Shown here one piece after another: positions 16,166 through 61,999 of a stretch of DNA of 64,000 nucleotides. Source of the DNA: an uncultured Phycisphaeraceae bacterium (GTDB taxonomy: Bacteria; Planctomycetota; Phycisphaerae; Phycisphaerales; Phycisphaeraceae). The notes below the pieces were generated by a model. That model was given only the letters and a program-made list of their open reading frames with translations, was not told the origin of the DNA and did not search any database. Within the stretch, counting starts at the first letter, position 1. Each line of letters starts with the position of its first letter. The translations under genes and the position numbers were made by a program. The DNA is taken from NCBI GenBank assembly GCA_964625505.1, contig CAZVBW010000001.1:8542-72541 (forward strand). Reading direction: 5' to 3'.

Positions 16166-16228
16166 GCAGTCATCCTGGATGACCCCTGCTGAACCGTCAC
16201 CTTGCCCCGCCTTCTCAGGAGAACCCTC

Positions 16229-17005
16229 ATGTCGATTCGCCTCAACACCCATCTGTTCGCTGCGGCCGCCACCACGGCGTTGTTCACCACCGGTGCCTCC
16301 GCCGCCGTCGTGACCAACCTCAGCGGTGCAACCGTCACCTCGCTCGACGTCGACCGCGGCAGCACCGTCTACAACTACGACACCTCGGAGTTGATCAACG
16401 TCGAACTCACGGCTTTCGGCGGCAATAGCTCCGGCAGCTCTGATCTCTACTTCGCCGTGCCCGATGGCAGCGACCTCACCGTCCCCGCCCCCGGGACGCG
16501 AGCTGGCCTCGTCGAAGACTTCGACCTCTCAACCGGCCTGCTCAACCTCAACGGGGCTTCCACCTTTAGCTTTGACTCTGCGGTCGTCAATGACACGGGT
16601 ACGGACATCGTGATCTACGACATCGGCGGCGGGGACGATGTCACCCTCAGCGTCCCCGGTGGGACGAGCACGATCGTGAACCCCACGTTCGTGGATGCGG
16701 GCGTGGGGAATGTCAGCTCGGTACTCCGCGGCCTGGCCGCAGACGCGGACACGCTGACCGAGTTGGAGACCATTGCAAAGAACGGTGCCACAACTGGCAA
16801 CAGCAACCCACGGGCCTATTACGAAGTGGACCTCAGCACCTTTGAGATTGCCGACGGCGCCTCGGTGAGCTCGATCACCCTCACGGGCGAAGGCAACATC
16901 GACCCCGTGCTGATCGTCGGCCTGCCCGCCATCCCCGAGCCTGCCTCGGTCGCGCTGCTGGGCCTGGGCGGCCTGTGCCTGCTCGGCCGGCGTCGCACGG
17001 CCTGA
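16229..17005 (+). CDS. PEP-CTERM sorting-domain secreted protein
   Basis: An AGGAGA RBS lies 6 nt before the ATG. The signal peptide is MSIRLNTHLFAAAATTALFTTGASA. The C-terminus is IPEPASVALLGLGGLCLLGRRRTA. Confidence 0.85.
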   Translation: MSIRLNTHLFAAAATTALFTTGASAAVVTNLSGATVTSLDVDRGSTVYNYDTSELINVELTAFGGNSSGSSDLYFAVPDGSDLTVPAPGTRAGLVEDFDLSTGLLNLNGASTFSFDSAVVNDTGTDIVIYDIGGGDDVTLSVPGGTSTIVNPTFVDAGVGNVSSVLRGLAADADTLTELETIAKNGATTGNSNPRAYYEVDLSTFEIADGASVSSITLTGEGNIDPVLIVGLPAIPEPASVALLGLGGLCLLGRRRTA

Positions 17006-17401: not shown

Positions 17402-18259
17402 TCAATCCACCGACTCGCCGCCCACCTCGATGTTGCCTTCCTCGATGTCCAGCTCGGCGGCGGTGGCGATCTTCTCAATTTGCCCGTCGCGGATGTAGAG
17501 CACTCGGTCGGAGTTGGCGAGCATCTTGTGGTCGTGGGTGGCGGTGATGATCGTCACGCCCTCGTCGACCGAGAGGTTTTTCATGATCTCGATGATCTCC
17601 GCGCCCGTGTGCAGGTCCAGGTTGGCGGTCGGCTCGTCGGCGAGGATGATCGTCGGGTCATTAACCAGGGCCCGGGCAATGGCGACGCGCTGCTGCTGGC
17701 CGCCGGACAGCTCGTCGGGGCGGTGGTCCAGGCGGTGGCCCAGCCCGACCTGCTCGAGCCGGCGGGTCGCGGCGGCGTCGGCCTCCTCCACGGTCAATCC
17801 CCGGAACACCGCGGGCAGCGAGACGTTCTTCACCGCCGTCAGCGACGGGATCAGGTTGTACGCCTGGAAGACGTACCCGATGTAGTTGCACCGCACGTAC
17901 GCCAGCTGCCGGGGCTTGAGCTTGGTCAGCTCCAGCGGGCCGATGGTGACGTTGCCTTCCGAGGGCTTATCGAGCGCACCGATGATGTTGAACAGCGTGG
18001 ACTTGCCGGACCCGGAGGGGCCCATGATCGAGAGGTATTCGCTGCGGAAGATGTCCAGGCCCACGTCCCGCAGGGCGTAGACCTTTTCCTTGCCCTTGAG
18101 CGTATAGATCTTCGAGACGCCGCGGACGGTGATGAGCCTGTCGCCACGGGCGATCTGCCCGGCCGCGCCGGTCGGGCCGCCCACGGGGGCGTCGATCGTG
18201 TCGCCGGCTGTCACGTCGGCGGGGCGGGCGGGGTCGGCGGTGGCGGCGGGCGTGGTCAT
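17402..18259 (-). CDS. ABC transporter ATP-binding protein (MacB/LolD/FtsE-like)
   Basis: The Walker A motif is GPSGSGKSTL, the signature is LSGGQQQRVAIARAL and the Walker B motif is IILADEPT. An N-terminal extension of about 50 aa is low complexity. No permease gene is adjacent. Confidence 0.9.
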   Translation of the reverse strand: MTTPAATADPARPADVTAGDTIDAPVGGPTGAAGQIARGDRLITVRGVSKIYTLKGKEKVYALRDVGLDIFRSEYLSIMGPSGSGKSTLFNIIGALDKPSEGNVTIGPLELTKLKPRQLAYVRCNYIGYVFQAYNLIPSLTAVKNVSLPAVFRGLTVEEADAAATRRLEQVGLGHRLDHRPDELSGGQQQRVAIARALVNDPTIILADEPTANLDLHTGAEIIEIMKNLSVDEGVTIITATHDHKMLANSDRVLYIRDGQIEKIATAAELDIEEGNIEVGGESVD

Positions 18260-18286: not shown

Positions 18287-19222
18287 TCAGGGGCCCATGC
18301 CCACCAGGCGCGAGGAGTCACCTTCGTAGACCACGTGGCGGACGCCGTGGTTGTCATTGTCGGTGCGGATATTGGACCAGTCGGTGCGGGTCGCCAGCTC
18401 GATGGACCGGACCTCGCCGCCGTGGCGGAGGACCTGGTTGGCGCCGAGGTGCTTGGGGGAGTGCCAGTCGTACTGGCCGCCGCCGAGCCCGACGTAGTCC
18501 TCGTGGCCGCCGTAGACGCCCTGTTCGTAGGTTCGGCCCATGTCCGCCGCGAGCGGCAGGTAACCCGGCTCGGACTGGTCCAACGGGCGGATCCACCGCG
18601 GGATGCCGCCGCTGACCTGCCCGCCGCGGGACGGCAGGTGGTAGCTGATGTTGCGGTTGCCCGGCCACGTGGGGTTGAAGCCGGTCGCGGCGTCCCACTG
18701 GGCACCGGTCATGTTGCCGTGGTCCAGAAAGGCCGCGAAGTTCTCCCAATAGTTGAAATCAAGACTCTTGTCGTTGAGGTCGCGGTTGTTCGGGCACAGG
18801 AACATCTCCGGCGAGCCGTACGCCGGGGCCAGCATCGTCGGAGCCGGCCGGTTGTACCGCTTGCCGAAGCCGTCCATGTTGTGGGGCGTGCTGGTGCCGC
18901 CGAAGCCGGACTGGCGGGTCCATTCGTCCTGAAACTCGCCCGCGAACCAGGCGTCGTGCCCGTAGAAGTTGTCGGTGAAGTGGCTGACCGGAAACGCGCT
19001 GCGGCTGTCGGTCGCGTAGCTGTGGAAGGCGATGCCGATCTGCCGCAGGTTGCTGCCGCAGACCACCTTCCGCCCCGCCTCCCGGGCCTGCTTCAGACTC
19101 GGCAGCAGCAGCGCCACCAGCAGCGCGATGATGCTGATCACCACCAACAGCTCGACCAGCGTAAAGCCGCCCCGAGACCCGGCCCCATGGCCAACTGAAT
19201 CGCCCGCATGACGCTCGAACAC
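18287..19222 (-). CDS. Prepilin-type N-terminal cleavage/methylation protein, DUF1559 family
   Basis: The start is GTG. The sequence is ...[55 protein letters not shown]. It lies 27 nt upstream of the ABC ATPase gene. Confidence 0.85.
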
Positions 19223-19698: not shown

Positions 19699-20445
19699 TC
19701 AGCGGCGCCGACGCGTGAGCATCAATGCTCCGCCCGCGGCGAGCAGCGCGATCGACGCGGGCTCGGGGATCACCTCGAGCTGCACGTTGTCGAGCCGGGC
19801 GAACTCGGCGTTCGCATTCGGATTGCTGCTGAACTCGATCCAGAGCTGCTGGCCGATGCTGGCACTGAGCGGCGCCACCACCTCATCGGCAGGGTCGACC
19901 GTCTGGTACGTCGATGGGTTACCCGACACCGACCCGGACAGCAACGTGGTCTTCGTGCCGCCGAGCGTGTTGTCGCTGGTGGTGAAGAGGTAGTATTCAA
20001 AGGAATCGCCGGTGGCATCCCACGTTTGCGCAGCCAACCAGTCGAACGAGAGGTCGAGGATATCTCCATCCTGCACCACGTAGTTGGTGTTCAACAGGCC
20101 GCCGAGGACATCGCCACCGCCTTCGGCACCCATCACCAAGGAATGGCTGCCCTCGGACGCCAGCAGATTGTCGCGGGTTTGAATCGATTCGACGACGTTA
20201 GTACCGACCCCGTCGCCGGTCTGCCAGAAGCCCGCCGTGGCGTTGTCCGATGTCAGCTCGTTGCCCGAAGGACCAAACTCAAAGCTGCCGTTGCTGTTGT
20301 AAATGTCGCCGGGGCCGTTGGTGTAGCTGGGGTCGACCACGACCACCGCGGCGGCGGAGCCGGCTACCGCACAGGACAAGGCCACCGCAGAAGCGGAAGC
20401 CAAAGCGGCGACAGATGGGATGAGGGGGGTGCATTTGCTGGACAT
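19699..20445 (-). CDS. PEP-CTERM sorting-domain secreted protein (lectin/CBM-like body)
   Basis: I start at MSSKCTPLIPSVAALASASAVALSCA (ATG comp. 20443-20445, AAGGAG RBS). The C-terminus is LDNVQLEVIPEPASIALLAAGGALMLTRRRR. The 5' extension to 20718 is rejected. Confidence 0.85.
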   Translation of the reverse strand: MSSKCTPLIPSVAALASASAVALSCAVAGSAAAVVVVDPSYTNGPGDIYNSNGSFEFGPSGNELTSDNATAGFWQTGDGVGTNVVESIQTRDNLLASEGSHSLVMGAEGGGDVLGGLLNTNYVVQDGDILDLSFDWLAAQTWDATGDSFEYYLFTTSDNTLGGTKTTLLSGSVSGNPSTYQTVDPADEVVAPLSASIGQQLWIEFSSNPNANAEFARLDNVQLEVIPEPASIALLAAGGALMLTRRRR

Positions 20446-23443: not shown

Positions 23444-23834
23444 GGGGCCGACTGGCATCGACCGGACGCGTTCCGGTTCGTGGTTGCACGTCGAGGTCCA
23501 GGGACCTCGTTAATCCTCCTGGAAAACACTAAATGCCGACGATTCCATCGCCGGTCGGATCGGCTTCGCGCCGGCCCGCCTCGCTGCCTAACTTCGGTTA
23601 GCGCAGCCTCTGCCTCCCCGTCCAATCTTCCTGCGTTGGGCGGGGCAGGCACACTGACCAGCAGGATCGCCCGCGTCGGGCTGTCTCCGACGACGCGGGT
23701 TAAGAGCACCGGAGACTGGACCCGAGGCAGGGCGTCGCTGCTCGTCCGAGGGTCGAGATCAAATCAGCGAATACACGTGTAGACGCTACGGGCTGCCCGT
23801 CACGGCACGGGGGTTCGAATCCCCCCGGCTCCAC
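23444..23834 (+). ncRNA. ssrA: tmRNA (transfer-messenger RNA)
   Basis: The 5' GGGGCCG pairs with the 3' CGGCUCC, including the G3:U pair. The 3' end GGGGGUUCGAAUCCCCCCGGCUCCA is a tRNA-like T-arm and acceptor stem. The tag ORF at 23535-23591 encodes ADDSIAGRIGFAPARLAA followed by a stop, which is a canonical ...LAA ending. CCA is only partly encoded. Confidence 0.93.
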
Positions 23835-23851
23835 TGGTTCCGATGAGGAAC

Positions 23852-23994: not shown

Positions 23995-25815
23995 TCACGC
24001 GCTCGCCATCGCTTCGGGGATCGATGCCGGGCCGGTTTGTTCGTGACTGTCGAGCCACTGGGCCATGCGGATGAACACCGCGGCGGTCCAGCCGTAGGTC
24101 GGGCAGCGCAGGCCCCGGCCGTCGTCGGCGGCGTAGTTCTCGTACATGCCCGGCTGCCGTGCGACGTTGCGGCAGAAGCGCTCGGCGACCTGGGCCGCGT
24201 GGTCCTCCCGGCCCGCGTCGATCAGGCCCCGGAAGATGATCCACGTCGGCGGTGCCCAGATCGGGCCGCGCCAGTAGCTGTCGCTGAGGAACTTCTCGCT
24301 CTGGGGCGACTCGGTCGCCGGGCCGAACGCCGTCAGCCACGGCCCGTCGGGCTCCAGCGCGTCGATGCAATGGTCCAGCAGCGGTTCGGGCAGCCGCTTG
24401 CCCAGCACGATCGGCAGGTAAGGCATCAGCGACATCGTCGGCTCGTGGTCGTGGTCGCCGCTGCGGGCCGACACGAAGCCCCCGTCGCGGACGCCTTGCT
24501 CCAGCAGCGCCTCGAGTTGACGTTCCGACCGGGCCTGCCACTGGGCGGCCTCGTCGGGCTTGCCGAGGATCTCGGCGATCCGGCCAAGCTGTTCGCACTG
24601 GATCACCAGGTACGCCGCCAGGTCCACGCCTTCGGTGGGCATGCCCTGATCGAACACCGTCGCGTTGTCCCAGCCCGAGTCGTTGCCGTGGTGGTACTGG
24701 CACATCCCGTCGCGGTCGTCGTCGCGGAAGCGGTACCACCAGTGGGTCCATCGGCTCATCGGCTCGTAGATCTCGGCGAGCCTGTCGCGGCACGCCTCGA
24801 TGCCCGCCGCGTCGATCAGGTCGCGCAGGACCAGCCCCTGCACCGGCGGCTTGAGGAAGCCGAAGTTGGCCTCGGCATCGTGCAGGTGATCGCAGATCTG
24901 CCCGCTGGGGGCCTGGTGATCAAAGTGCAGCATCAACTGGTCAAACGCCAAGTCCAGGTCCGCCGAGCCCACGCCCAGCGCCGCGAACGCGGCGTCCCAC
25001 GGCCAGGTGATGTTCATCCACAGCCGGCCCATGATGATCGCCGGACGTTGCAGCAGCCCGCGTGGGCCGACGCGGTGGTGCCAGAGCGTGTGCCACGCGT
25101 ACTCCGCGGCGGCCTGGAATTCCTCGGGGACCGATGGCATCTGAGTCATCCATGCCTCGATCTGCTCATGCTTGGCCCGCAGCGCCCGGTCGTACGGCGG
25201 GACGCGCAGCGCGGCCTGGTCGGGCTCGACCTCGTGCAGCGAGAACACCGCCTCCAGGGGCGACGCCGCGCCGTCCAGATGGATCGACGCGATCATCTTG
25301 GCCACGCCGTTTCGCGATTCGGATGCGGGGCTGTGCAGCCGTTCTTGCAGATGGACCCGCTCGGCTGAGCCGCTATGGACCACGGCCGTTTCGCCGGCCA
25401 ATGCGTCGTAGACCATCACGCAGTTGTCGTCGCGCTGGGCCCGCCAGCCCTGCGGCTTGCACCCCTTGAGCAGCACCGAGACGCCCCGACTCCGCATGGC
25501 GATCGCGTCGGTCCCGCAGAAGGTGAGTCGCGCTTCGCCCTGCTGGCTGATGAGGCGCAACTCGGCCGCCGTCGCCCGGACCTCATAGGGCAGCGGCTGG
25601 CCCGCCGCGTCGAGCAGCTGCACGTCGAACAGGTCGGTGTTCCCGCACCCGTACTGCTGCGAGGTGCCCCAGACACTGCGACGGCAGGACTGCAGGCGCA
25701 CCGGCCAGTGCTTGTCCGCACCATGCGGCGCCGCCGCCGGCGAGCGCACCTGCAGGAACGAACCGGCAGAGCTCCAAGCGTTGACGGTCAGATCGATTGG
25801 GAAGTTGTTACTCAT
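23995..25815 (-). CDS. GH63-like / MGH1-like (alpha/alpha)6-barrel glycoside hydrolase
   Basis: I start at MSNNFPIDL (ATG comp. 25813-25815), 5 nt after the LacI stop. Motifs HHGNDSGWDNATVFD, YWRGPIWAPPTW and MYENY are typical of the trehalase/GH63-like clan (from memory). Confidence 0.65.
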   Translation of the reverse strand: MSNNFPIDLTVNAWSSAGSFLQVRSPAAAPHGADKHWPVRLQSCRRSVWGTSQQYGCGNTDLFDVQLLDAAGQPLPYEVRATAAELRLISQQGEARLTFCGTDAIAMRSRGVSVLLKGCKPQGWRAQRDDNCVMVYDALAGETAVVHSGSAERVHLQERLHSPASESRNGVAKMIASIHLDGAASPLEAVFSLHEVEPDQAALRVPPYDRALRAKHEQIEAWMTQMPSVPEEFQAAAEYAWHTLWHHRVGPRGLLQRPAIIMGRLWMNITWPWDAAFAALGVGSADLDLAFDQLMLHFDHQAPSGQICDHLHDAEANFGFLKPPVQGLVLRDLIDAAGIEACRDRLAEIYEPMSRWTHWWYRFRDDDRDGMCQYHHGNDSGWDNATVFDQGMPTEGVDLAAYLVIQCEQLGRIAEILGKPDEAAQWQARSERQLEALLEQGVRDGGFVSARSGDHDHEPTMSLMPYLPIVLGKRLPEPLLDHCIDALEPDGPWLTAFGPATESPQSEKFLSDSYWRGPIWAPPTWIIFRGLIDAGREDHAAQVAERFCRNVARQPGMYENYAADDGRGLRCPTYGWTAAVFIRMAQWLDSHEQTGPASIPEAMASA

Positions 25816-26932
25816 GGATGCAAGCGGGGGCTGTGCTTTCGCGCACCACCAGTCGAGGTTCGATGACTTCGCAAAAATCACGGTGGGCGGCGATGGCCTT
25901 CTCGCCGCCGTCGGCAAGCGCCAGGACCAGTTCGCCCGCCTGGACACCCAGGTCGATCAGTCGGGCGTCCACGGTGGTCAGGCGTGTGTGCATGCGCGTC
26001 GGGTCCAGGTTGTCGAACCCGGTGACCGAGATGTCCTGCGGCACGCGGAGGCCGTGCCTGCTCAGGGCCCGGCAGGCGCTCACGGCGGTGATGTCGTTGA
26101 AGCAGACCACGCCGGTGACGCCCCGGCCGATGCCCTCGTGCCCGCGACGGTGCAGCCAGCGTTCCATCGCCTCCTCGCGGTAGTTCGCTTCGGCGAGCCG
26201 GTCGGGCGGATCTTCACGCTCCTTGCGGGGCTGGCCGTGGGTCCACGCCTCGGCCTTGATGCCATGTCGGCAAGCCGCGGCGAGGAAGTGTCGCTCACGC
26301 TGGGCGGCAATCTGATTGCTGCGTTGCCCATATTCGGGCCCCAGGTACAGCAGCTCGCGGTGGCCCAGTTCGTGGAGGTGATCGACCAGACGCCCGATCG
26401 CGTCCTTCGTGTCGTAAATGAACGAAGGCAACCGGGTCTCAACCGACGGCAACACCGCCACGATCGGCAGCGCAGGGCTGTCGCGGAGCGTCTGGGTGTT
26501 GTCCTCGACGAGGTTGCACGGCGGCAGCACCAGCCCGTCGATCCGCTTTTCTTCGACTTGGCGTCGGCCGCGAGCATTGGCCCGGCTGGTGGTGCTCGGG
26601 ACGATCAGCGCGAGGTTGTAGCCCGCGGCGTGGGTGGCCTGCTCGACGCCGGCGATGATCTCGCCGTAGAACGGCTGAAGCAGCGAGGACGGTTGGGTTG
26701 GCTCGGCGGCCGGGCCGTTCTGCTCGACGGCGACGCCCAGCGTTTCGGTCTTGCCGCTTCGGATCGCCCGGCGGTGGTACCCCGCGACGTAACCGACTTC
26801 CCGTGCAGCATTTCGCACACGCGCGGCACAATCGGCACTGATGCGCTCGGAGAGCTTGGTGCCATTGAGCACCCGCGAGGCGGTGGAGACGCTCACCCCC
26901 GCTGTTTCAGCCACATCCGACAAACTGGGCAT
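25808..26932 (-). CDS. LacI family transcriptional regulator
   Basis: MPSLSDVAETAGVSVSTASRVLNGTKLSERISADCAARVRNAAREVGYVAGYHRRAI is a LacI HTH. A sugar-binding domain follows. Confidence 0.9.
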   Translation of the reverse strand: MPSLSDVAETAGVSVSTASRVLNGTKLSERISADCAARVRNAAREVGYVAGYHRRAIRSGKTETLGVAVEQNGPAAEPTQPSSLLQPFYGEIIAGVEQATHAAGYNLALIVPSTTSRANARGRRQVEEKRIDGLVLPPCNLVEDNTQTLRDSPALPIVAVLPSVETRLPSFIYDTKDAIGRLVDHLHELGHRELLYLGPEYGQRSNQIAAQRERHFLAAACRHGIKAEAWTHGQPRKEREDPPDRLAEANYREEAMERWLHRRGHEGIGRGVTGVVCFNDITAVSACRALSRHGLRVPQDISVTGFDNLDPTRMHTRLTTVDARLIDLGVQAGELVLALADGGEKAIAAHRDFCEVIEPRLVVRESTAPACIHE

Positions 26933-27062: not shown

Positions 27063-27090
27063 TTGACAGCGAATCGGTGTGTGCTATCTT
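27063..27090 (+). promoter_or_regulatory. Sigma70-like promoter TTGACA-N16-(TGc)TATCTT upstream of a PEP-CTERM gene
   Basis: The -35 TTGACA lies at 27063-27068. An extended -10 TGCTATCTT ends at 27090. The element is about 77 nt upstream of the ATG at 27167, in a locally less GC-rich region. Confidence 0.45.
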
Positions 27091-27166
27091 TCGCACAAGG
27101 CGGGCACGTGCTCTGCCGGAATCTTGAGCTTTCATCCGAATTCGTCGAGGAACGAGGAACCTGCCC

Positions 27167-27973
27167 ATGTCAATCACCCGCCCTTTCAGCTCGCTGTCCG
27201 CCGCCGTCGCCGCCGCGGCCCTGTTCACGCCCGCCGCCCAGGCCGACCTGCTGGTCGAGTTCACGACCGCCGAGGGTTACACCTCGGGTTCGATCGGCGG
27301 ACAGGAGGTCGACGACTCGACCAGCAGCAACGTCGCATGGAGTAGCGGCTCCGGAGCGCCTCAGTATGCGGTCGATACGACCAACGACTGGGTGCAGTTT
27401 TCCAATAGTGTCGGGACGTTCAGCGGCGTCAGCACCGGCAACTTCGACAGCGCTCTGCTGGGCTTTGATCCGGCGAACCCGGGTGCCGGTTTCACCGTGA
27501 GTATTGATGTCGATTGGATTCAGAACACGGGCCAGGACAACGGAGGGGTCAGTGACACACAGCAGATTCGGTTCGAGATCCGCGATCCCGGCGGTAATCC
27601 TTACGCTGGTATCAACGTCAACGGTGACGGCACGCTGAAGTCGCGGTCTGGCGGCGACAGCAACAGCACCACCATTGCCGACATCTCCGGCGTCACCGGC
27701 TTCTCAACCGTTGACATGGCCGTCGACTTGGTCAACAGCAACGTCAGTTACAGCCTGGACGGCAACCCGGTGACCGGCTTGCAGGATGTCGCGTTCCTCG
27801 ACTCCTCAGCCAACGGCGACATCGGTCGGTTCGACTTCCGCCAGAACTTCGGCAACGCTGGCGAAGGCTTCGTCGTCCGCTTTGACAATCTGGCGGTTGT
27901 GCCCGAGCCCGGGTCGCTTGGACTGTCGGCCATCGGCGGGCTGTTGCTCATGGCCCGGCGCCGCCGGAAGTGA
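27167..27973 (+). CDS. PEP-CTERM sorting-domain secreted protein
   Basis: The signal peptide is [26 protein letters not shown]. The C-terminus is [30 protein letters not shown]. Confidence 0.88.
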
Positions 27974-28040
27974 GCCGAGCTTTCAGCTTTGGAACCGTTC
28001 GGGTGCTTGGATGTTCAGTCAACTTCAGGAAGGTGTGACG

Positions 28041-28805
28041 ATGCCACGGCGACAGGCCTTTACCCTCATCGAGTTGCTGGTTGTCATCAGCATCATCGCC
28101 CTGCTGATCGCGCTGCTGTTGCCGGCCCTGGGGGCGGCGCGGGAGGCGGCGCGGAGCGTGCAGTGCCTGTCCAACCTCCGGCAGAGTGGCATCGCCCAGA
28201 GCGTCTACGCCGCGGACCACGACGATTACGTGGTCATCATGGGGCAGAGCGGCACCTACAAGCCCTGGACCGCGATCTTCGAGAGAAACGGAATCCTGCC
28301 GGCTGACAACAATGATGCGACCCGATGCCCCAGCGAGCCGACGGAAGGGACGTCGCAGGCCGGTGAGGCCTACGGCATCACCACCGGCATCGCCAGCAAC
28401 TACGTCCGCCGGTCCGCGGCCCCCGGCGTCACCCCGGGGTCCAGCTACACGGTTGGCTCTTTCCCGGACGAGGATCGTCCTTACACGGTCTACCAGTTCC
28501 GCTTTCACCAGACCGACGGGGGGCAGGTCGAGAGCTACCTCAACCTGAACACCATCGGCAGGCCGACCAAGTATCTCGGCTTTGTCGACAGCTGGCGGCA
28601 GGCAACCGGGCGGCAGAACCACCAGCTCAAGACCAGCGGGATCGGCACCTACAACACCGGCGTGGCGATGCGTCACGGCGACCGGGCCCAGGCGGTCGCC
28701 TGGGACGGCCACGCCGAGGGCTACGACCGCCAGGGGTTGGCCGACCGCGGCTTTGACGAGGCGTTCGCCCAGGACGACGGCTACACGATCGTGGGCCTGC
28801 CCTGA
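28041..28805 (+). CDS. Prepilin-type N-terminal cleavage/methylation protein, DUF1559 / H-X9-DG family
   Basis: The N-terminus is [48 protein letters not shown]. The C-terminal [13 protein letters not shown] fits H-X9-DG. An AGGAAGG RBS is present. The ORF-track 5' extension (27786) overlaps the previous gene and is rejected. Confidence 0.88.
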
Positions 28806-28866
28806 TCGGCCGTCGGCGATCGAACCATCCCACTTCACCAACCCCCCCGCTCTCAGGAGAGGCAGA

Positions 28867-31347
28867 TTGTCGCTTACGACCCCCCGCAGGCTTTTGATTG
28901 CCCTCACCGTCGGCCTTGGGGCCCTGGGCAGCACCGCGCACGCGTCCGAGCCTGAAGCCTCCGACCCGCCGCCGACGGTCGACCACATCGGCCCGATCCA
29001 GCCGGACATGCTGCACCTCACGGTGCTCGAGGGCCGGGTGATCCCCGGCACCATCGAGCGGTACGAGCCCCAGCCGGGCGACCGGGCCCAACAGCGGACG
29101 CCGACCGAGTACGGGGCGCGGGCCCTGGACCGCGACGGTCAGACCATTGGCCTTGTCCTCGGCCGCGACGACTCGCACGTGCGCCTGCCCGACCGCTTCG
29201 AAGGTCAGCGGCTGGACCGCGCGTTGATCGACGAAGCTTCGAGCTACCGGCTCTCCACCGCCGAGGGCTCCGACGTGCCCGGGGTGGTGCGGGTCTACCG
29301 CAAAACCTCCGTGGACGACTTGAGCCTGCACAACCGTCAAGAGGGTTCGCAAGCCCAGCTGCGGCACCGCCTGTACCTGCAGCTGGACCAGCCGCTGGAG
29401 GTTGGGCGGACCTACACGCTGAACTTCGCCGACCCGCTCCTGGAGCCGGCCCGGTACGTGCATGAACCGCGAACCACCCGGAGCGACGCGGTTCACGCCC
29501 CGCACATCGGGTTTCGGCCGGGCGACCCGGCGAAGTTCGCCTACGTCTCGCTGTGGCTGGGCGAGGGCCCGGGCGTCGGCGGCGGCATCGACTTTCAGCC
29601 CGGCACGCCGTTCGAGGTGATCGACCAGGACAGCGGCGAATCGGTCTTCCAGGGCGAGCTGCAGCTGCGCCGCCGCGGCGATCAGGATGAGCAGGGCCGG
29701 ATGGTCGACTACCCCGACGGCCGGTTCAACTGGGCCAAGGTGAACGTCTACGAGGCGGACTTCTCATCGCTTGATCGGCCCGGCCGCTACCGGGTCTTCG
29801 TCGAGGGGGTGGGTTGTTCGTACCCCTTTGAAATCCGTGAGGACGTTTGGCGCGATGCGTTCCTGACAACGCTCGCGGGCATCTACGTGCACCGCAGCGG
29901 GATGCCCGTCGAGGTCACGTCGGTCGGCGGGGCTCGCTGGCACCGGCCGCGCGGGTTTCACCCGGACGACGGCGTGGTCGTTCGGCAGTCCACGGCGATC
30001 GTCAGCGACGCCGACTTTGACCGCCTCGTGCAGGGCGCAACCGAGCAGGAGGTCCCGGAGGCGTGGGGCGGCTACATGGACGCGGGGGACTGGGACCGGT
30101 CGTCCAAGCACCTGAACATCTCCTGGAACCTGCTGGATTTCGTCGAGCAGTTCCCGGAGTACGCCGGCTCACTGGACCTGCCGATCCCCGACAGCGCCGA
30201 GGTCCTGCCCCACCCGGCGTACGCCCAGGCCGACCTGCCAGACCTGCTGGACGAAGCGGTCTGGGGCCTGGACCTGTTCCGCCGGATGCAGCAGGACGAC
30301 GGCGGGGTCCGCGGCGGCATCGAGTCGGCCGCCCACCCCCGGCCGGGCGAGCCGAGCTGGCTCGAGTCGCTGGGCGTGTACGCCTGGGCCGTGGACGAGC
30401 GGTCCAGCTACTACTTCGCCAAGGTGGCCGCCAAGGCGGCCTGGGTGTTGCGGGATTACAACCCGCAGCTCGCCCAGCTGTACCACGACGCCGCCGTGCG
30501 GGCCTACGACTGGGCTCAGGCCCACCCGACCGAGTTGGACGAGGCCACGCTCCAGAGCGACTACCGCCGTAAGAAGCACCACGCGCCGGCGCTGGCCGCC
30601 GCCGCCGAGCTGTACCGCCTCACCGGCGAGACGCGGTATCAGGACGACCTGCTCGCCATCGAGCGAGAACCCGATGAAACCGCCGGCATGATCGCCGACC
30701 GCGACCTGACCGACCGCGACCAGCTCGACGCCGCCTGGACCTACATCCACACCGACCACCCGTCGGTGGATCAGGCGCTGCGCGAGACGGTCCGGGAGCA
30801 CTACCTCCGCACGACGATGGGCATGGCCCGGATCGCCAATGAGCGGACGGCGTTTGGTGTGCTGAAGTTCGGCTGGCACCCGTTCGGCGGGGCCGGGGCC
30901 GGTACCAACCCCAACGAGCGGACCGAGCACGTGGCCCGGGCGTACCTACTCACCGGCGACCCGGCGTACCGCGCGGCGGTCGTCCGGGGTGTCTCGCTGG
31001 GCCTGGGTGCCAACCCGCAGAACCTGGCCATGATCACCGGCCTGGGCCACCGCTCGCCCCAGCGCATCCTCCACGTCGACTCGCAGGCGGTGGGCCAGAC
31101 CGCCCCGGTGGGCATCGCGCTCTACGGCTGGAACCCGTCGACATCCGGCGTGCTCAGCCGGCACGGGCGGACGTTCAACACCGAGAACCAGCAGGCCATT
31201 GTGCCCGACTTCCAGACGTGGCCATATATGGAGAACTTCCACGCTCACCCGCGCTGGTGGCAGATGACCGAGTACGTCGTGGACCGCAACATGTCGCCGA
31301 CGAACTATCTGCTGGGCTTCCTGGACGCCCTGCCCGCCGAACGGTGA
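28867..31347 (+). CDS. GH9-like glycoside hydrolase with CelD_N-type Ig domain (paralog of 7757-10879)
   Basis: The TTG start lies 6 nt after an AGGAGA RBS. The signal peptide is LSLTTPRRLLIALTVGLGALGSTAHA. Motifs GGYMDAGDWDRSSKH, GANPQNLAMITGLGHRSP and MTEYVV are collinear with the other copy. Confidence 0.72.
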   Translation: MSLTTPRRLLIALTVGLGALGSTAHASEPEASDPPPTVDHIGPIQPDMLHLTVLEGRVIPGTIERYEPQPGDRAQQRTPTEYGARALDRDGQTIGLVLGRDDSHVRLPDRFEGQRLDRALIDEASSYRLSTAEGSDVPGVVRVYRKTSVDDLSLHNRQEGSQAQLRHRLYLQLDQPLEVGRTYTLNFADPLLEPARYVHEPRTTRSDAVHAPHIGFRPGDPAKFAYVSLWLGEGPGVGGGIDFQPGTPFEVIDQDSGESVFQGELQLRRRGDQDEQGRMVDYPDGRFNWAKVNVYEADFSSLDRPGRYRVFVEGVGCSYPFEIREDVWRDAFLTTLAGIYVHRSGMPVEVTSVGGARWHRPRGFHPDDGVVVRQSTAIVSDADFDRLVQGATEQEVPEAWGGYMDAGDWDRSSKHLNISWNLLDFVEQFPEYAGSLDLPIPDSAEVLPHPAYAQADLPDLLDEAVWGLDLFRRMQQDDGGVRGGIESAAHPRPGEPSWLESLGVYAWAVDERSSYYFAKVAAKAAWVLRDYNPQLAQLYHDAAVRAYDWAQAHPTELDEATLQSDYRRKKHHAPALAAAAELYRLTGETRYQDDLLAIEREPDETAGMIADRDLTDRDQLDAAWTYIHTDHPSVDQALRETVREHYLRTTMGMARIANERTAFGVLKFGWHPFGGAGAGTNPNERTEHVARAYLLTGDPAYRAAVVRGVSLGLGANPQNLAMITGLGHRSPQRILHVDSQAVGQTAPVGIALYGWNPSTSGVLSRHGRTFNTENQQAIVPDFQTWPYMENFHAHPRWWQMTEYVVDRNMSPTNYLLGFLDALPAER

Positions 31348-35071: not shown

Positions 35072-35997
35072 TCAGTCGAGCTCGTCGAGGGCGGCCTGGG
35101 CGACGGCGCGTTGGCGGAGCCATTCCTGGAACAGCTCGTCGGGCTCGTCGTAGTAGTCCAGCAGCTGTTCGTAAGCCCGGACGGCCTGGGGGTAGGCTTG
35201 GCTCTGGAGCAGCTGGTAGGCCCGGTCGTTCTGGCGGGTGAGTTCCTGGACCATCAGGTCCTGCACCTGCCGCCAGCGGCGTTCGTCCGCCTCGTTGAGG
35301 AAGTACGACCGCTGCGAGTGGGCCAGGGCCTGACGGTACTGGCGGTAGACGATGGGCAGCTCGCGTGAGCCGGCCAGCTGTTCGGGGGCGGCGGCGAAGA
35401 GGCGGCGGGCCTGTTCGACGGCTTCCTGGAAGCCGCGGTCGCCGCTGTCGATCGGGTCCAGTGGCTGGCGGATGGCGTCGTCGATCTGGTCGGCGGTGAC
35501 CGGCCGGATCCCCTCGGTCTGGACGCCGGGGTCGTCTTCCTGCTGGACGATGCTGAAGATGATGATCGCGAGGAGCATCAGCAGCACGTAGACGCCCAGG
35601 CCGACCCACAGCTTGGTCCGCGGCTTGTCCTCGCGGCTGGCGGCGGCGGGGTCGTCCTCGGGCTCGACCGGCGGGGGCGGGGCGTTGGCGGGGGCGCCGG
35701 CGACGGTGACGCGGAAGACCTCGGTCTCGCCGACGGTGACCACGTGCTCCTCGGCCATGGCGCGGGGCTTGGCCCGGACCAGTCGGCGGTCCAGTCGGGT
35801 GCCGTTGTCCGAGAGGTTGACCAGGTACCAGCGGTCGTCCTGGGCGTCCCACTCGAATCGGCCATGCTGGCGGGACATCTCCGGCAGGTCGACGACCAAG
35901 GCGTTGTCGACGTTGCGGCCGAAGCTGACCGGCGCGTCGGTGAGCAGCACGGTTTTGCCCGCGTCCTCGCCGGTCAGGATCTGGACCTGCAGGCCAT
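35072..35997 (-). CDS. FHA domain protein with a TM segment and a C-terminal helical (TPR-like) domain
   Basis: The start MNGLQVQILTGEDAGKTVLLTDAPVSFGRNVDNALVVDLPEMSRQHGRFEW...LVNLSDNGTRL is an FHA domain. The TM segment is LWVGLGVYVLLMLLAIIIFSIV. The start abuts the tadC stop (35998). Confidence 0.8.
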
Positions 35998-36912
35998 TCA
36001 TCCGAGCAGCGACCCCTGATTGATGTAGCGGATGAGCATGGGGGCAAAGACGATGGTGACCACGGCGATGAGGATCATCATCGACGGGATCAGGATCCGC
36101 AGCGATGCGGACGCGGACATCTTCTCGGCGCGGACGCCCCGCTGCATCCGGAGCATGTCGGCCTGCATCTTGAGGATCGACGCCAGCGGGGTGCCCAGCT
36201 TCTCGGCCTGGTTGACCGCCGCGACGGCCGACCGCAGGCTCTCCAGCGGGACACGCTCGGCCAGCCCGGTCATGGCCTCGGCGCGGGTAGACCCGAAGCG
36301 GATTTCGGCCAGACACACGCTCAGTTCCTGGTTGAGGTCTTCGTCGGGGTTGTCGCGGATGAGCGTTTCGACGGCCTCGGTGAAGTTGCTGCCCGCCGCC
36401 ATGACCAGGGCGACCAGGTCCAGGGTGTACGGCAGCTGCTTGCTGATGCGGGACACGCGGGCGGTCGCCGAGCTGCGGAGCGTGGTCAGCGGCAGCCAGA
36501 ACCCGGCGGCCATGAAGATCGGCACGACGATGGTCGCGGCGTTCATCGCCAGCAGCAGGTTGAGGCCCAGGCCCAGCAGCCCCCCGAGCACGCACGAGAG
36601 CACCGACAGCCCGACGTACTGGTCGACGCTGTAGCCGGCGATGTTGCCCGACGCGGAGAGGTCCTGCCAGACCCGCCGGCGCAGCGACGGCACCAGCTCC
36701 CCCAGCCTCGAGCCCAGGCGGACCGCGGGCTCCATCAGCGGCGCCAGCGCAGCGTTCTCGAAGACCGTCGCGCGGTCCACGTCCAGCGCCCGGACGATCT
36801 GCCGGTGCTGGGCGACCTGGGCCGCCGACGCCGGGCGGCACAGCAGCAGCCACACCACCGCGAACACGGCGGCGAAGACGACCAGCGAGATGACAAATTG
36901 CAGTGGGTCCAT
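35998..36912 (-). CDS. tadC: Type II secretion system F family protein (Tad pilus TadC-like)
   Basis: This is a T2SSF domain (KQLPYTLDLVALVMAAGSNFTEAVETLI...LGTPLASILKMQADMLRMQRGVRAEKMSASASLRILIP) with the typical TM topology. Confidence 0.8.
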   Translation of the reverse strand: MDPLQFVISLVVFAAVFAVVWLLLCRPASAAQVAQHRQIVRALDVDRATVFENAALAPLMEPAVRLGSRLGELVPSLRRRVWQDLSASGNIAGYSVDQYVGLSVLSCVLGGLLGLGLNLLLAMNAATIVVPIFMAAGFWLPLTTLRSSATARVSRISKQLPYTLDLVALVMAAGSNFTEAVETLIRDNPDEDLNQELSVCLAEIRFGSTRAEAMTGLAERVPLESLRSAVAAVNQAEKLGTPLASILKMQADMLRMQRGVRAEKMSASASLRILIPSMMILIAVVTIVFAPMLIRYINQGSLLG

Positions 36913-36976
36913 CAGCAGGGGTCAACTTAACCGGCGGCAAGCCTCGGGATGGCCATCCCCGGGCTTGACCAAGGCC

Positions 36977-37933
36977 TCAGATATCCACCGCCATGATCTT
37001 GCGGATCCAGAAAAACGCCAACACGATCAGGATCGCCACGCCGATGAGCATCAGCTGACCGAACCGCTCGGTGAACAGCATCGAGACGCCTTCGGGGTCG
37101 ATGACCCAGAAGATGCCAAGGAACACCACGGGCATCACCGCCATCATCCAGGCTTGGGTCCGGCCCTGGCTGGTCAGGGCGTCGAGCTTGCCCTCGAGCC
37201 GTTCGATCTCGCGGATCGACTCGCTGATGCGGTCCATCGACTCGCCGGTGTCGCCGCCGCGGAGCCGGTGCATCTCGATCGCGGTGAACGTCAGACGGTA
37301 CAGCGGCGAGCCGATGCGGTTGGCCGCCGACCGCATCGCGTCGTGCAGGTCGCGTCCCATGTGGTACTCGCGCATGATCTGGCCGAACTCCTGGGCGATG
37401 GGCCCGGTGTGGTTGTCGGCGACCAGTTGGATGGCCTGCACCAGGTTCAGCCCGGCCCGGACGCCCGAGGCGATGCTCGTCAGCCCGCCGACCAGCTGCC
37501 GCTCCAGCCGCAGCCGACGTTTCTGCTCCAGGTGCTTCATCAGCGCGTAGGGCAGGAAGAACGCCACCGCCGCGCACGCCAGGCCCCAGGTGACCGTCCC
37601 CACCACCAGCCACCCGAAGACGAACATGAGCCCCACCACACCCATCGCGAGGACAAACGCCCCCTGCGGCGGGACGTCCAGCAGCAACTGCTGACGCAGC
37701 ACGTGCTCGTACCGCTCAAGCTGCCGGCGGTACCAGCCCAGCCCCGGGCCGATGCCGTAGCGAACGAACAGGAACACCGCCAGACCCGCCGCGACGGAAA
37801 ACAGCACCGGGATGGCAAGCTCGGACGGCTGAGGCACGGGCACCAGTTTAAGCGAGCCGGACTCGGTGAGGCCGGTCGGGGTCGCCGACGCAGGCTCGGT
37901 TTGGGTGATCGCCCGATAACATGGCCATGACAA
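36977..37933 (-). CDS. tadB: Type II secretion system F family protein (Tad pilus TadB-like)
   Basis: This is a T2SSF domain (RQLVGGLTSIASGVRAGLNLVQAIQLVADN...GDTGESMDRISESIREIERLEGKLDALTSQGRTQAWMMAVMPV). The true start may be an internal GTG near 37843, because 37933 overlaps the divergent gene's start. Confidence 0.78.
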   Translation of the reverse strand: MSWPCYRAITQTEPASATPTGLTESGSLKLVPVPQPSELAIPVLFSVAAGLAVFLFVRYGIGPGLGWYRRQLERYEHVLRQQLLLDVPPQGAFVLAMGVVGLMFVFGWLVVGTVTWGLACAAVAFFLPYALMKHLEQKRRLRLERQLVGGLTSIASGVRAGLNLVQAIQLVADNHTGPIAQEFGQIMREYHMGRDLHDAMRSAANRIGSPLYRLTFTAIEMHRLRGGDTGESMDRISESIREIERLEGKLDALTSQGRTQAWMMAVMPVVFLGIFWVIDPEGVSMLFTERFGQLMLIGVAILIVLAFFWIRKIMAVDI

Positions 37934-40900
37934 AGGAGCTGGTCATGCTCGGATTCATGCAGCGGGTCATGTGGGGGGTGCTGGTTCTGGCGGCGGCGGT
38001 GGCCCCCGGACCGGCGATGGCCCAGGGGGTGCACACCATCACCGGGGTGGACCTGCTGGTCGAGGAGGGGACGCTGTGGACCGGGCGGACGGCCATGGTG
38101 CCGTTCCGGCTGGCCGAGCCGGCGGTCGAGGACATCCAGGTGCAGTCATGGGTGCTGGGTGAGGGGGCGTGGGTGACCCGGCCCGGGGAGGTGCTCGAGG
38201 GTCAACAGGTGGGGCACGTGCGCGTCTGGGCCCAACCGGGTGCCGAGCAGACGACGGTGCTGCTGCGTGTGGGCGATGCCCAGCAGGACCTGCGGCTGGC
38301 GGCGTCGCCTGCCGAGGCGTTGACGGCGGAGGGTCCGCGGGTGATCTCGCCGATCAACGACGCGGTGGTCTGGGGCCGGCTCGGCGTCGGCGTCGAACTG
38401 CCGCCGCGAGCGACCGACGACGGCTGGGCGGCGGACGGGCGGGAGGTCCGGCTGCGGCTGCCCGACGGCACGCTGCTGGAGGCGGACGAGGCGACGCAGC
38501 CGGCGGAAAACCCGCTGCGGCGCTTCGCGTTCACCGTGGACGCCGATGCGCTGGCCCAGGGGTTGCAGACGCTGGTGCCGGTGGTGGTGGGCGATGACGG
38601 GCAACCGGTGCCAGATGCTGGCGTCGACCCGGCCGGGGCGGTGCGGGTCCGGGTGATGCGGCCGGGGGTCGGGCAGCTGCGGGTCGAGGAGGCCGAGGCG
38701 AGGCGGCATCCCCGGCGGCCGGATCGGTACCGCGATCAGCCGCTGCGGGTCGGGCAGGACCCCGACGCGTCGGGCGGGGTCTACGTCAACAACGCCGGCG
38801 ACCAGCCCACGGTCGCCCTGCCGATCAAGCCCGACCGCGGCGGTTGGTATCAACTGATCGTCCGGGCCAGCGGCGACCCGGCGGCGGGCGTGATGCCGCA
38901 TGTCGGGGCGTATTTCGACAACAGCAACGACCCGCGGACCGGCGCGGCGGTGACGCACACCGACGGCTGGGCCCGCATTGCGGTGGGTCGGCCGTTCCAC
39001 TTGAGCGACGAAAAGCACATTGTGCTGCCGCGGTTCGCCAACGACTTCAACGCCGGCCGCGGCGTGGACCGCAACCTCCGGCTGGACACCGTTGAGCTAC
39101 TGCGGCTGCCCGGGTCCCCCGCGAGTTGGCCCGGCGACACTGCCGACCAGGACGACGCGCTAGCCGCCCCGGCCGACGACACGCTCTGGGTCGCCATCGA
39201 CCCGTCGCTGCACCGCGCGACCGCCGCCGGCGACTTGCCGGTCCAGGTCCGAACCCGCGTCACCCACCGCGGCGGCCAGCAGCCCCGCATCACGCTGCAC
39301 ATCAACGGGCAGCCCGCCCTCACCGGCGGCGGCGACCACATCCGCTTCGACGTCTCCCGCGGCCACCTGCAGCCCGGCGAGAACACCCTGGTCGCCCACG
39401 CCCAGCTGGCCGACGGCCGCACCGCCCGCAGCCAGCCGATCACCCTCCGCCTCGCCGACCACCCCGCCCGCCCCGAGCCGGTCACCATCCGCCGCTTCAA
39501 CGCCACCGACCCCCGCGTCACCGGCGTGCCCCGACGAAACGACCGGCCTAACGGCAACCGGCCCACCCTCGCCTTCAGCGCCAACGGCTCGGCCGACATG
39601 CCGCTGCCCGACGACGCCACCGGCCCGCACCGCCTGCTCATCAGCGCCCGCGGCGACGCCCACGAGGGCTGGCCCATCGCCCGGCTGGTCCTCCACCACG
39701 ACGGCCAGGAACAGCCACTCGGCGAGATCGAGGTCAACTCCGGCGGCTACCGCAACTTCTACCTCGACGGCCGGGTCGACCTGCCCGCGGGCCCCAAACG
39801 CCTCAGTGTGCGGTTCATCAACGACCTCTACGACGGCAATGATCGCGACCGCAACCTCTACGTCCGCACCATCCGCCTGGACCCCGTCCGCTCGGGCGAG
39901 GACCAGGAGCCGGTGGCCCGCATCCTCTATCCCTCGCCGCGCCAGTCGGTCTTCGGTGCCGACGCGGTCGTGTTCGAGGTCGCCGACGACCGCCAGGTCC
40001 GCGCCGCCGAGCTGGTCATCGACGGCGAACCGACCGGCCAGATCGTCGAGATCGACAACGGCATGGCCCGCCACGTGCTGCCGCTGCCGCTCCGCGTGCT
40101 CGACGCCGGCCGACACCGTCTCGCGGTCCGCGTGGTCGACTCGGCCCAGCAGACCGCTACCAGCGACCGCGTCGAGGTCCGCATCAGCCACGAGCCGCCG
40201 CCCCAGCCAGGCCCATACGCACGGGCGCTGCGGGTCCTGGACCGCTTCGGCTGGGGGCCCGAGCCGCGGGCGCTGGCGGACATCCTCGTCGAGGGGCCCG
40301 GCGACTACTTGCGCGACCGCCTGCTGGCCCCGCCCGACGAGCCGGGGTCCGTCAACGCCATGACCTGGGCCCGCATCCGCTACCCCGCGGACAACAACCA
40401 GGGCCACGTCGTCCGCCGGGCGCTGACCTACCAGCTCACCGAGCCCAACCCGCTGCGGGCCCGCTTCGTGCTGTTTGCCGACAACCACTTCAACACCTGG
40501 ATGCGCAAAGTCCGCCCCGAGAACAAGGCCCCCGAGCACAGCCGCTTCACCGCCCTGGGCATCGCTCCCATGGAGGACCTGCTCTGGGCCTCGGCGACCA
40601 GCCCCGCGATGCTCGTCTACCTCGATCAGCAGCGCAGCTTCGGCAACCGCATCAACGAGAACTACGCCCGCGAGATCATGGAACTGCACTCGCTGGGCGT
40701 CCACGGCGGGTACACACAGGACGATGTCACCCAGCTGGCCCACCTGCTCACCGGCTGGACCACCGCGCAGACCGCCCCACCCAGCAGCGGCAACGGCTTC
40801 CGCCCGCACCGTTTCGCCTATGAGCCGGTCGTCGCCGAGCCCGACGCCCAGCGCGTCTACACCCTCGCCCTGCCCGCAGCGACGGACCCGGCCGACCGGT

Positions 40901-41568: not shown

Positions 41569-41712
41569 GGCCGGGTCGCGGGTCGCTGGACCGAAATCGC
41601 ATCCCCCGCGACCCGCAACCCGCAACCCGACTTCCCTCTTGGCATCTGCCCCTCACTGACCGATAATCCCCAGAGCCCACCCGTCCCCCACCGCATCCGC
41701 CGGAGCCGACCC

Positions 41713-58060: not shown

Positions 58061-58204
58061 GTAGATTCAATTCCGGGGGGCGTTTAGCCCGCGGTGTCAG
58101 CCGCGGCGGGGCGACCCGGCTTCGCCGGGAGCGCGGGCCAAGGCCCGCGGCTAAACAAGCGCCGAATCACCCGCCGGCGGTCATCGGACCGATAAGTCAC
58201 GGGT

Positions 58205-61977: not shown

Positions 61978-61999
61978 GCACCAGCAGGAGGAACTGACG

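Follow-up and report, generated by a model that had tools for sequence, protein, structure and literature searches.

The window analysed here is a 64-kb stretch (64,000 nucleotides, G+C ~70%) from contig CAZVBW010000001.1 of an uncultured Phycisphaeraceae bacterium. It carries a recurrent gene pair in which a gene for a secreted PEP-CTERM protein directly precedes, on the same strand, a gene for a prepilin-type DUF1559 protein. The gene map combines a codon-position G+C filter with Pfam and NCBIfam scans, whose results are mutually consistent. The archetype of the pair, PEP3 followed by DUF3, stands ahead of a glycoside hydrolase family 9 (GH9) gene and is divergent from a unit coding for a LacI-family regulator and a GH63-like enzyme:

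27167-27973, + strand: PEP3, secreted PEP-CTERM protein of 268 amino acids (aa); PF07589 23.4 bits, TIGR02595 23.8 bits
28041-28805, + strand: DUF3, prepilin-type DUF1559 protein of 254 aa; N_methyl 31.3 bits, SBP_bac_10 23.8 bits
28868-31347, + strand: GH9b, secreted CelD_N + GH9 glycosidase; PF00759 1.7e-25, PF02927 2.6e-7
25808-26932, - strand: LacI-family regulator with LacI and Peripla_BP_1/3 domains, divergent from the putative PEP3 operon
23995-25815, - strand: GH63/MGH1-like six-hairpin glycosidase, co-directional with LacI; PF22422 1.1e-47
27063-27090, + strand: promoter-like site TTGACA-16-TATCTT, 10/12 hexamer matches, with a TG extension
27080-27097, + strand: 18-bp palindrome TGTGCTATCTTTCGCACA, candidate LacI operator, overlapping the -10 element of the promoter-like site

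Judging from this arrangement, PEP3, DUF3 and GH9b are likely to form one operon, divergent from the LacI-GH63 unit. The gap is 67 nt between PEP3 and DUF3 and ~60-90 nt between DUF3 and GH9b, depending on whether GH9b starts at TTG 28868 or at 28894 as in the JGI gene call, and no terminator-like site was found between the three genes. The LacI and GH63-like genes overlap by 8 nt and both run away from PEP3, leaving a divergent region of 234 bp between LacI and PEP3. The palindrome TGTGC-N8-GCACA occurs once in the window, 0.09 occurrences being expected by chance; its 5+5 pattern was spotted by eye and then searched for, the automated inverted-repeat finder having seen no operator, and it stands as a weakly evidenced candidate for the LacI operator.

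GH9b carries a signal peptide and a CelD_N Ig-like domain ahead of its GH9 catalytic domain (PF00759 90.6 bits, PF02927 31.8 bits), and matches CelD, CbhA and BoGH9A in the PDB at 1e-19 to 1e-16. Its catalytic motifs, the Asp pair of DAGD and the C-terminal Glu, are present as judged from motif position. A second GH9 gene of the window, GH9a, is a true paralogue (35% identity over 841 aa), and the motifs GGYMDAGDWDR and (N/T)EY are common to GH9a, GH9b and the GH9 enzyme of L007, a related locus described below.

Three pairs and their surroundings

The original prediction held that a PEP-CTERM gene lies immediately upstream of a DUF1559 gene three times in 31 kb. We recovered all three co-oriented pairs at the coordinates then given, with the TIGR02595, N_methyl and DUF1559 models scoring above their cutoffs. 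The gaps between PEP-CTERM and pilin genes are 61, 476 and 67 nt for pairs 1, 2 and 3, respectively. A six-frame motif scan of the 64 kb found exactly three prepilin-type and four PEP-CTERM genes, none past the first 31 kb, and each of the three pilin genes has a PEP-CTERM gene directly before it. Random placement of 4 + 4 PEP-CTERM and pilin genes among 50-70 genes gave three or more co-oriented PEP-CTERM/pilin adjacencies in 2e-5 to 1.4e-4 of the gene orders; the three pairs are therefore real and non-random. The PEP-CTERM proteins resemble one another solely over their last 33-83 residues and the pilins solely over their N-terminal ~60 residues, so the pairs are not recent duplicates of one cassette. 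The genes of pairs 1 and 2 and those around them are the following:

645-1589, - strand: PEP1, PEP-CTERM protein of 314 aa, first gene of its putative operon; TIGR02595 22.1 bits, PF07589 24.7 bits
1-583, - strand, cut by the window edge: DUF1, prepilin-type DUF1559 protein with H-X9-DG; 254 aa for the full protein on the source contig
1718-2854, + strand: sugar regulator with an AraC helix-turn-helix (HTH) and a periplasmic-binding domain (AraC/PBP), divergent from pair 1
19699-20445, - strand: PEP2, PEP-CTERM protein of 248 aa; TIGR02595 26.4 bits, PF07589 19.6 bits, just below the cutoff of 20.7
18287-19222, - strand: DUF2, prepilin-type DUF1559 protein without an exact H-X9-DG, separated from PEP2 by 476 nt and from the ABC ATPase gene by 27 nt
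17402-18259, - strand: LolD/MacB-type ABC ATPase, directly downstream of DUF2
16202-17005, + strand: PEP4, the fourth PEP-CTERM gene, with no pilin partner; PF07589 24.9 bits
15262-16032, - strand: IclR regulator, divergent from PEP4
7757-10867, - strand: GH9a, CelD_N + GH9 protein of 1036 aa; PF00759 58.0 bits, PF02927 36.8 bits
11009-12112: second LacI gene, divergent from GH9a and on its promoter side

Pair 1 heads a co-directional string in a layout like that of pair 3, being divergent from the AraC/PBP regulator, which is 31% identical to the regulator at the equivalent place in L007. Beyond the window edge, the string continues after DUF1 with an unknown protein of 690 aa, one of 1231 aa with a weak GH42-like match and, at its end, a GH29 alpha-L-fucosidase. 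Sequence searches of the PDB with PEP1 and with the 690- and 1231-aa proteins gave nothing useful. Pair 2 differs in that DUF2 leads into the LolD/MacB-type ABC ATPase, and the pair is thus without a glycosidase. PEP4, which had been missed in the original list, is convergent with the DUF2-ATPase unit. GH9a, the closest window paralogue of the L007 GH9 (41%), has no PEP-CTERM/pilin pair of its own and forms a separate transcription unit.

These surroundings narrow two further claims. Two pairs had been placed beside paralogous GH9 enzymes: the paralogy is real and pair 3 abuts GH9b, but GH9a lies 6 kb and four genes away from pair 1. All three pairs had been placed next to regulators and glycosidases or sulfatases, which describes pair 3 (LacI, GH9b and the GH63-like gene) and pair 1 (AraC/PBP, GH29), pair 2 being without a glycosidase.

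Several other features of the region were recorded. Upstream of the window on the source contig, a fourth DUF1559 gene (L094 19490-20125, - strand) sits at the contig end, where its upstream side is cut off. Two tandem T2SSF genes (TadB/TadC-like, 35998-37942) and an FHA-domain gene together occupy 35108-37942 on the - strand, 4 kb from the archetype module; these genes are predicted to be part of a pilus or secretion assembly machine. An unknown gene and the GH63-like gene flank a complete tmRNA gene (23444-23836, + strand; Rfam 135 bits; ARAGORN tag peptide ADDSIAGRIGFAPARLAA). At 37909-43035 (+ strand), a 1219-aa CBM60 + DUF1800 protein is directly followed by a DUF1501 protein; DUF1800 and DUF1501 are a recurrent planctomycetal pair of unknown function, and the CBM60 on the DUF1800 protein is a xylan-type carbohydrate-binding module (CBM). 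Finally, a string at 58196-63988 (+ strand) codes for a MptE/Maf-like protein, a radical-SAM/NTP-transferase, a CMP-sugar synthetase-like cytidylyltransferase and a UDP-GlcNAc 2-epimerase. By its predicted gene content it is typical of nonulosonic-acid (pseudaminic, legionaminic or sialic-like) protein glycosylation, and it might glycosylate pilins or S/T-rich surface proteins.

The two partner proteins

All four PEP-CTERM proteins have Sec signal peptides by inspection (hydrophobic N-termini, AxA-type sites) and end in a PEP motif, a transmembrane (TM) helix and a basic tail, which is Arg-rich in PEP1, PEP2 and PEP3. PEP1, PEP2 and PEP3 exceed the TIGR02595 cutoff of 16 bits, in agreement with the signals originally ascribed to them. 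The PEP3 family is rare, with 26 matches among 1.84e9 representative proteins in an exhaustive HMMER search. A word-indexed homologue search with PEP3 returned nothing, not even PEP3, though the exact sequence is on public contigs; low-complexity filtering is a possible cause, and negative word-indexed results for S/T/G-rich proteins are to be read with care.

An AlphaFold2 model of PEP3, built from 12 aligned homologues, is all-beta and of moderate confidence (pLDDT 70.8, pTM 0.71). Foldseek returned 155 matches at E<=1e-3 for this model (best E 7e-8), and the top 50 are mostly concanavalin A (ConA)-like or jelly-roll domains. The matches at E 7e-8 to 1e-5 comprise the lectin domains of BT_1020 and of trypanosomal sialidase, PL7 lyases, CBM40 and the botulinum neurotoxin domain BoNT Hc-N, with target-normalised TM scores of 0.47-0.54 for the single-domain PL7 and CBM40 matches. 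The PEP3 body thus models as a ConA-like two-sheet beta jelly roll, as in lectin and CBM domains, and no conserved ligand-site signature could be assigned to it. The carbohydrate-binding-type fold proposed for all the PEP-CTERM bodies is obtained for PEP3 alone, the bodies of PEP1, PEP2 and PEP4 showing no detectable relationship to it. A common lectin family for all PEP-CTERM partners was considered and is not supported: PEP1, PEP2, PEP4 and the PEP-CTERM protein of Natronomicrosphaera hydrolytica (see below) align with the PEP3 family over the sorting tail or last strand alone.

The three pilin-like proteins begin with a class III signal (G/A-F-T-L-I-E, with Glu in position +5) that leads into a hydrophobic alpha1 helix, and score 24.8-31.3 bits with N_methyl (cutoff 21.2) and 24.5-26.2 bits with TIGR02532 (cutoff 16.3). 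With the DUF1559/SBP_bac_10 profile, DUF1, DUF2 and DUF3 reach 40.4, 38.6 and 23.8 bits against a cutoff of 23.3, matching over the first 30-100 profile positions alone. They fail the GspG equivalog TIGR01710, where they obtain 33.1, 29.2 and 25.9 bits against 88.85, over the N-terminal region alone. In the DUF3 family (42 homologues), F7, T8, E11 and L12-V15 are invariant, and conservation is full or nearly so for a Cys pair, H212 and D222-G223-H224. The H-X9-DG motif, at residue 212 of DUF3, is found in exact form in DUF1, DUF3 and the pilins of L007 and L103, is absent from DUF2 and reads H-X10-DG in Poriferisphaera corsica; the H-X9-DG label first given to all three pilins fits two of them in its exact form, and the NCBIfam model of that name was not among the pilin matches.

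An AlphaFold2 model of DUF3 (41 homologues, pLDDT 75) consists of an alpha1 helix of 51 residues (9-59) and a beta-rich head. The DUF3-family profile matches PilA, PilE, GspG and PpdD over alpha1 alone and, as the head gave no significant PDB fold match with Foldseek, the assignment to a pilin fold relies on these alpha1 matches and on the order of secondary-structure elements.

Distribution of the pair

A counterpart of the archetype lies in a Phycisphaerae metagenome-assembled genome (MAG), at L007. There, a GH63-like gene and an AraC/PBP regulator on the - strand are divergent from a PEP-CTERM gene, a prepilin gene and a CelD_N-GH9 gene on the + strand. The L007 PEP-CTERM protein (P0003) is 34% identical to PEP3, the pilin 39% to DUF3, the GH63 52% to the window GH63-like enzyme, and the GH9 36% to GH9b. 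Since the L007 regulator does not belong to the LacI family, the pair has been kept while its surroundings were reshuffled. In a further MAG, a PEP-CTERM protein (MGF1634214) and a GH9 (MGF1634216) carry accession numbers that leave a single one in between, which fits the same three-gene order. At L098, a PEP3-family member (43% identity) and a 1166-aa GH9 are encoded divergently. In the search that bears on loci of this type, a 3-sequence PEP3 alignment gave a single metagenome locus, which ended after the PEP-CTERM gene, and a 13-sequence alignment was too diverse.

We then approached the pair from the pilin side, with two full-length DUF3 homologues from cultured strains chosen blind to their neighbours; in both, a PEP-CTERM gene lies directly upstream. 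The named homologues agree with a Phycisphaerae origin of the window. In N. hydrolytica AB-hyl4 a GntR/PBP regulator gene is followed by those for a PEP-CTERM protein (269 aa), the pilin and a DUF4838 protein (1079 aa), DUF4838 being a domain of unknown function. In P. corsica KS4 (CP036425; L104 7215-12710), five PEP-CTERM genes (178-247 aa) surround one prepilin gene within 5.5 kb, and three of their products (191, 178 and 194 aa) visibly share N-terminal body sequence and are apparent paralogues. Four of the six pairs seen head strings with recognised or candidate glycan-active enzymes (GH9b, L007 GH9, GH29, DUF4838); a sugar-type regulator is divergent from three of these four and directly upstream of the other. 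The PEP3 family itself tracks GH9 and GH63-like genes more faithfully than it tracks the pilin. The gene of one distant member, P0011, comes right after those for a T2SSM-like protein, a secretin and a small zinc-ribbon protein (L011 1145-6409), a context that hints at a link between the PEP3 family and a secretin-based machine.

The picture changes in a wider sample, obtained by scanning a genome collection with the pilin alignment: 80 loci (L014-L093, 1.11 Mb) from Planctomycetota, Verrucomicrobiota and Lentisphaerota, about nine of them from Phycisphaerae. None of the 106 DUF1559-like genes in these loci has an adjacent PEP-CTERM gene, as a motif detector and a purpose-built hidden Markov model agreed, and the loci hold a handful of PEP-CTERM genes in all. 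On this sample, the pairing is therefore no general DUF1559 trait.

The same-strand upstream neighbours of these pilins include Peripla_BP_3 sugar-binding regulators in 11 of 90 cases (9 with GntR HTH, 2 with AraC HTH) and Laminin_G_3 proteins in 4 of 90, and the downstream neighbours include DUF4838, heparinase II/III, CBM9 and GH67-N proteins. A one-strand layout recurs in which a GntR/AraC-type sugar-binding regulator of ~360-390 aa is followed by a DUF1559-like pilin and a large protein of 600-1500 aa (examples: L016, L026, L042, L050, L056, L069 and L092), and tandem pilin genes are common in the sample. What is general across the three phyla is the embedding of pilin genes in sugar-regulated loci, and not the PEP-CTERM pairing.

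A possible capture device and its relation to known systems

Gene order and predicted folds suggest a lineage-specific polysaccharide-capture device. The reading we lean towards, by a modest preference, is that a sugar-regulated operon delivers an exosortase-sorted surface lectin, a pilin-like subunit that joins a fibre, and one or more glycosidases, which jointly capture and degrade one polysaccharide. From the identities, order and spacing of the genes, the conservation of the layout and the fold of PEP3, we infer the following course of events. The LacI repressor, made divergently together with the GH63-like enzyme, would control a PEP3-DUF3-GH9b transcript. After export by Sec, PEP3 would be cleaved by an exosortase at the PEP-CTERM signal and exposed on the cell surface or matrix, where its ConA-like jelly-roll body would bind the target glycan. 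DUF3 would be processed by a prepilin peptidase and enter a fibre of the type II secretion system (T2SS) or type IV pilus kind via its conserved alpha1 helix. Its variable head would provide a locus-specific function, either to dock the lectin or the glycan onto the fibre or to assist the passage of the cognate enzyme or lectin through the outer membrane, and GH9b and the GH63-like enzyme would cleave the captured glycan. The pair would then be a Phycisphaerales-specific accessory cassette, present in diverged versions in several carbohydrate-active enzyme (CAZyme) operons, with both partners keeping their sorting or assembly signals while the exposed domains diversify.

The functional glycan unit that had been proposed is supported in part: the layout recurs in Phycisphaerae and the PEP3 body models as ConA-like, but its hydrolase partner is not fixed. 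Support for the module is genomic and structural, and the generality once claimed for it does not hold. Besides the 80-locus result, several observations weigh against the capture reading. Pair 2 combines a 476-nt gap with an ABC ATPase and no glycosidase, and the P. corsica array has no CAZyme nearby. At L006, a 41%-identical PEP3 homologue directly precedes a GH63-like gene with no pilin between, and the distant family members P0007 and P0011 have neither pilin nor CAZyme as neighbours. The nearest GH9b homologues (40-42%; P0028, P0031, P0038) are without the pair, so GH9b does not carry the pair along. On the protein side, profile comparison detected no kinship of the PEP1, PEP2 and PEP4 bodies with PEP3, and the DUF3 head lacks a PDB counterpart, as said above. 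Among those of the window's open reading frames that were scanned, no exosortase (EpsH/Xrt) and no prepilin peptidase was found, nor was an ATPase or secretin of a pilus or secretion machine.

A different account, possible though we think it improbable, sees in the pair a surface-display or secretion couple that is independent of glycan use: a cargo-specific pseudopilin or adaptor would take the neighbouring PEP-CTERM protein across the outer membrane via a T2SS-like machine, and CAZyme operons would be one context among several. It accommodates the persistence of the pairing despite heterogeneous PEP-CTERM bodies, as well as the PEP3-family member next to the secretin/T2SSM-like cluster, and it fits pair 2, with its ABC ATPase, and P. 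corsica, where five PEP-CTERM genes surround one pilin and CAZymes are absent, better than the capture reading does. The association of four of the six pairs with recognised or candidate glycan-active enzymes and with an adjoining sugar-type regulator argues against it, however, as do the existence of PEP4 and many PEP3 relatives without a pilin and the more faithful tracking of GH9/GH63-like genes than of the pilin by the PEP3 family.

Rather unlikely, in our view, is that the DUF1559 protein stays in the inner membrane by its alpha1 helix, as a periplasmic oligosaccharide-binding or enzyme-tethering subunit, while the PEP-CTERM protein binds glycan separately outside and their adjacency reflects co-regulation alone. 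A head without counterpart among solved pilins, GspG equivalog scores that do not exceed 33 bits against 88.85, and the many sugar-regulated operons with pilin paralogues and no PEP-CTERM partner speak for this. But a class III signal with conserved Glu5 and a long alpha1 are the assembly determinants of fibre-forming pilins, and the tight PEP-CTERM-to-pilin order is kept at 33-39% identity.

We give little credence to PEP3 being itself a jelly-roll enzyme (a PL7 or GH16-like lyase or hydrolase), which would make the module two enzymes and a pilin. The Foldseek match to PL7 alginate/glucuronan lyases (target-normalised TM score up to 0.54) and an RFEIR string resembling the PL7 R-x-E-L-R motif point that way. 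However, the closest homologues, P0002 and P0003, do not conserve the string, the sequence shows no QIH or YFKAG-type PL7 motif, no Pfam or NCBIfam catalytic domain matches, and the best structural matches are non-catalytic sialidase lectin domains. A PL7-type lyase was rejected on the lack of RFEIR conservation, which makes a non-catalytic binder the better reading of PEP3. That the adjacency is a functionally meaningless by-product of two very large paralogous families is scarcely credible: both are expanded (7811 relatives of DUF3 obtained a score among the candidates examined, and one published genome has 67 paralogues) and PEP4 is unpaired, but all three window pilins follow a PEP-CTERM gene at the permutation frequency given above, the order is kept at 33-41% identity in another lineage, and both blind pilin-side look-ups were positive.

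The capture reading can be taken one step further, to a version that we regard as speculative and doubtful. The pairs might be co-diversifying two-part glycan-capture devices, functional equivalents of SusD/SusC, in which pilin heads dock their cognate exosortase-released lectins on a retractable type IV or T2SS-like fibre, each operon plugging its own specificity into one shared uptake machine. If so, part of the huge DUF1559 family would acquire its first function, and PEP-CTERM proteins a role in catabolism. In Planctomycetota and their relatives, DUF1559/H-X9-DG and PEP-CTERM proteins rank among the largest families of unknown function, and the pair offers a concrete, testable handle on how these bacteria, which lack SusC/D systems, capture and import polysaccharides. 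Since the same arrangement occurs in the cultured N. hydrolytica AB-hyl4 and P. corsica KS4, the pair is experimentally accessible. A substrate-specific capture module, if confirmed, would help to read glycan niches from the genomes of Phycisphaerae, which are abundant on marine particles and algae.

Our searches of the literature on DUF1559, H-X9-DG, PEP-CTERM and Phycisphaerae pseudopilins found no prior description of the PEP-CTERM/DUF1559 pairing, and the literature found, whose coverage is almost nil, assigns no function to DUF1559. Related designs have nevertheless been reported. The cluster with most of the alginate-induced genes of Verruconatronum alginivorum contains a pulG-like pseudopilin that has 67 paralogues; a separate pseudopilin is over-expressed on alginate, and the authors suggest type II secretion of the lyases (PMC13274419). 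Like such polysaccharide clusters of Verrucomicrobiota, Planctomycetota and Lentisphaerota, the window module sets a prepilin-type paralogue, whose family numbers dozens of members per genome, within a substrate-specific CAZyme cluster; unlike them, it has a PEP-CTERM jelly-roll gene first and the pilin second, an order seen in Phycisphaerales loci alone.

The comparison with Bacteroidota polysaccharide utilisation loci (PULs) is one of functional analogy: both are substrate-regulated clusters that encode a surface glycan-binding protein and its envelope partner beside enzymes, with many diverged copies of the pair per genome. The window module differs in using PEP-CTERM and class III prepilin signals, with presumed exosortase and T2SS or type IV pilus machinery. 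No SusC-like TonB-dependent transporter or SusD-like lipoprotein was found by Pfam in the scanned genes of the window's first 47 kb or of L094, and the module is therefore not a Bacteroidota-type PUL; "PUL analogue" denotes the functional analogy alone.

Pilin-like proteins have also been proposed elsewhere to bind or attach to complex glycans and to feed selfish uptake. As it is summarised in PMC12078418, the "fishing rod" hypothesis (Boedeker et al, 2017) has dedicated pilin-like proteins pull polysaccharides into planctomycete cells, and the type IV-like pilus locus MUL2 serves Akkermansiaceae in attaching to fucose-rich glycans (PMC13174399). Conserved as one locus, MUL2 includes PilM and an archaeal-type pilin, whereas the pair described here is multi-copy, sits inside enzyme operons and has no PilM-type gene; as far as these accounts go, neither proposal involves PEP-CTERM proteins.

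Each partner also has recognisable kin. The window PEP-CTERM proteins agree with the PEP-CTERM/exosortase family (Haft et al, 2006; PMC1569441) in their signal peptide, their diverse S/T/G/N/D-rich bodies, the PEP + TM + basic tail and their multiple copies per genome. The classical association of that family is with exopolysaccharide biosynthesis loci and PrsK/PrsR regulation (PMC1569441); here the genes lie in catabolic CAZyme operons beside a prepilin-type gene, a linkage that neither PMC1569441 nor any other paper found mentions. Like the T2SS pseudopilins GspG-K, DUF1-3 have Glu5 within a class III signal and a long hydrophobic alpha1, over which the DUF3-family profile aligns to GspG and PilA. 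They depart from GspG-K in scoring far below the GspG cutoff, in being encoded outside a gsp operon and in having a ~190-aa head that is larger than that of GspG and without PDB match. PulG-like pseudopilin paralogues inside polysaccharide loci of the superphylum were thus already known, and what is new is the PEP-CTERM, ConA-like partner directly before the pilin: the window module is a Phycisphaerales-specific variant of a recurring superphylum design.

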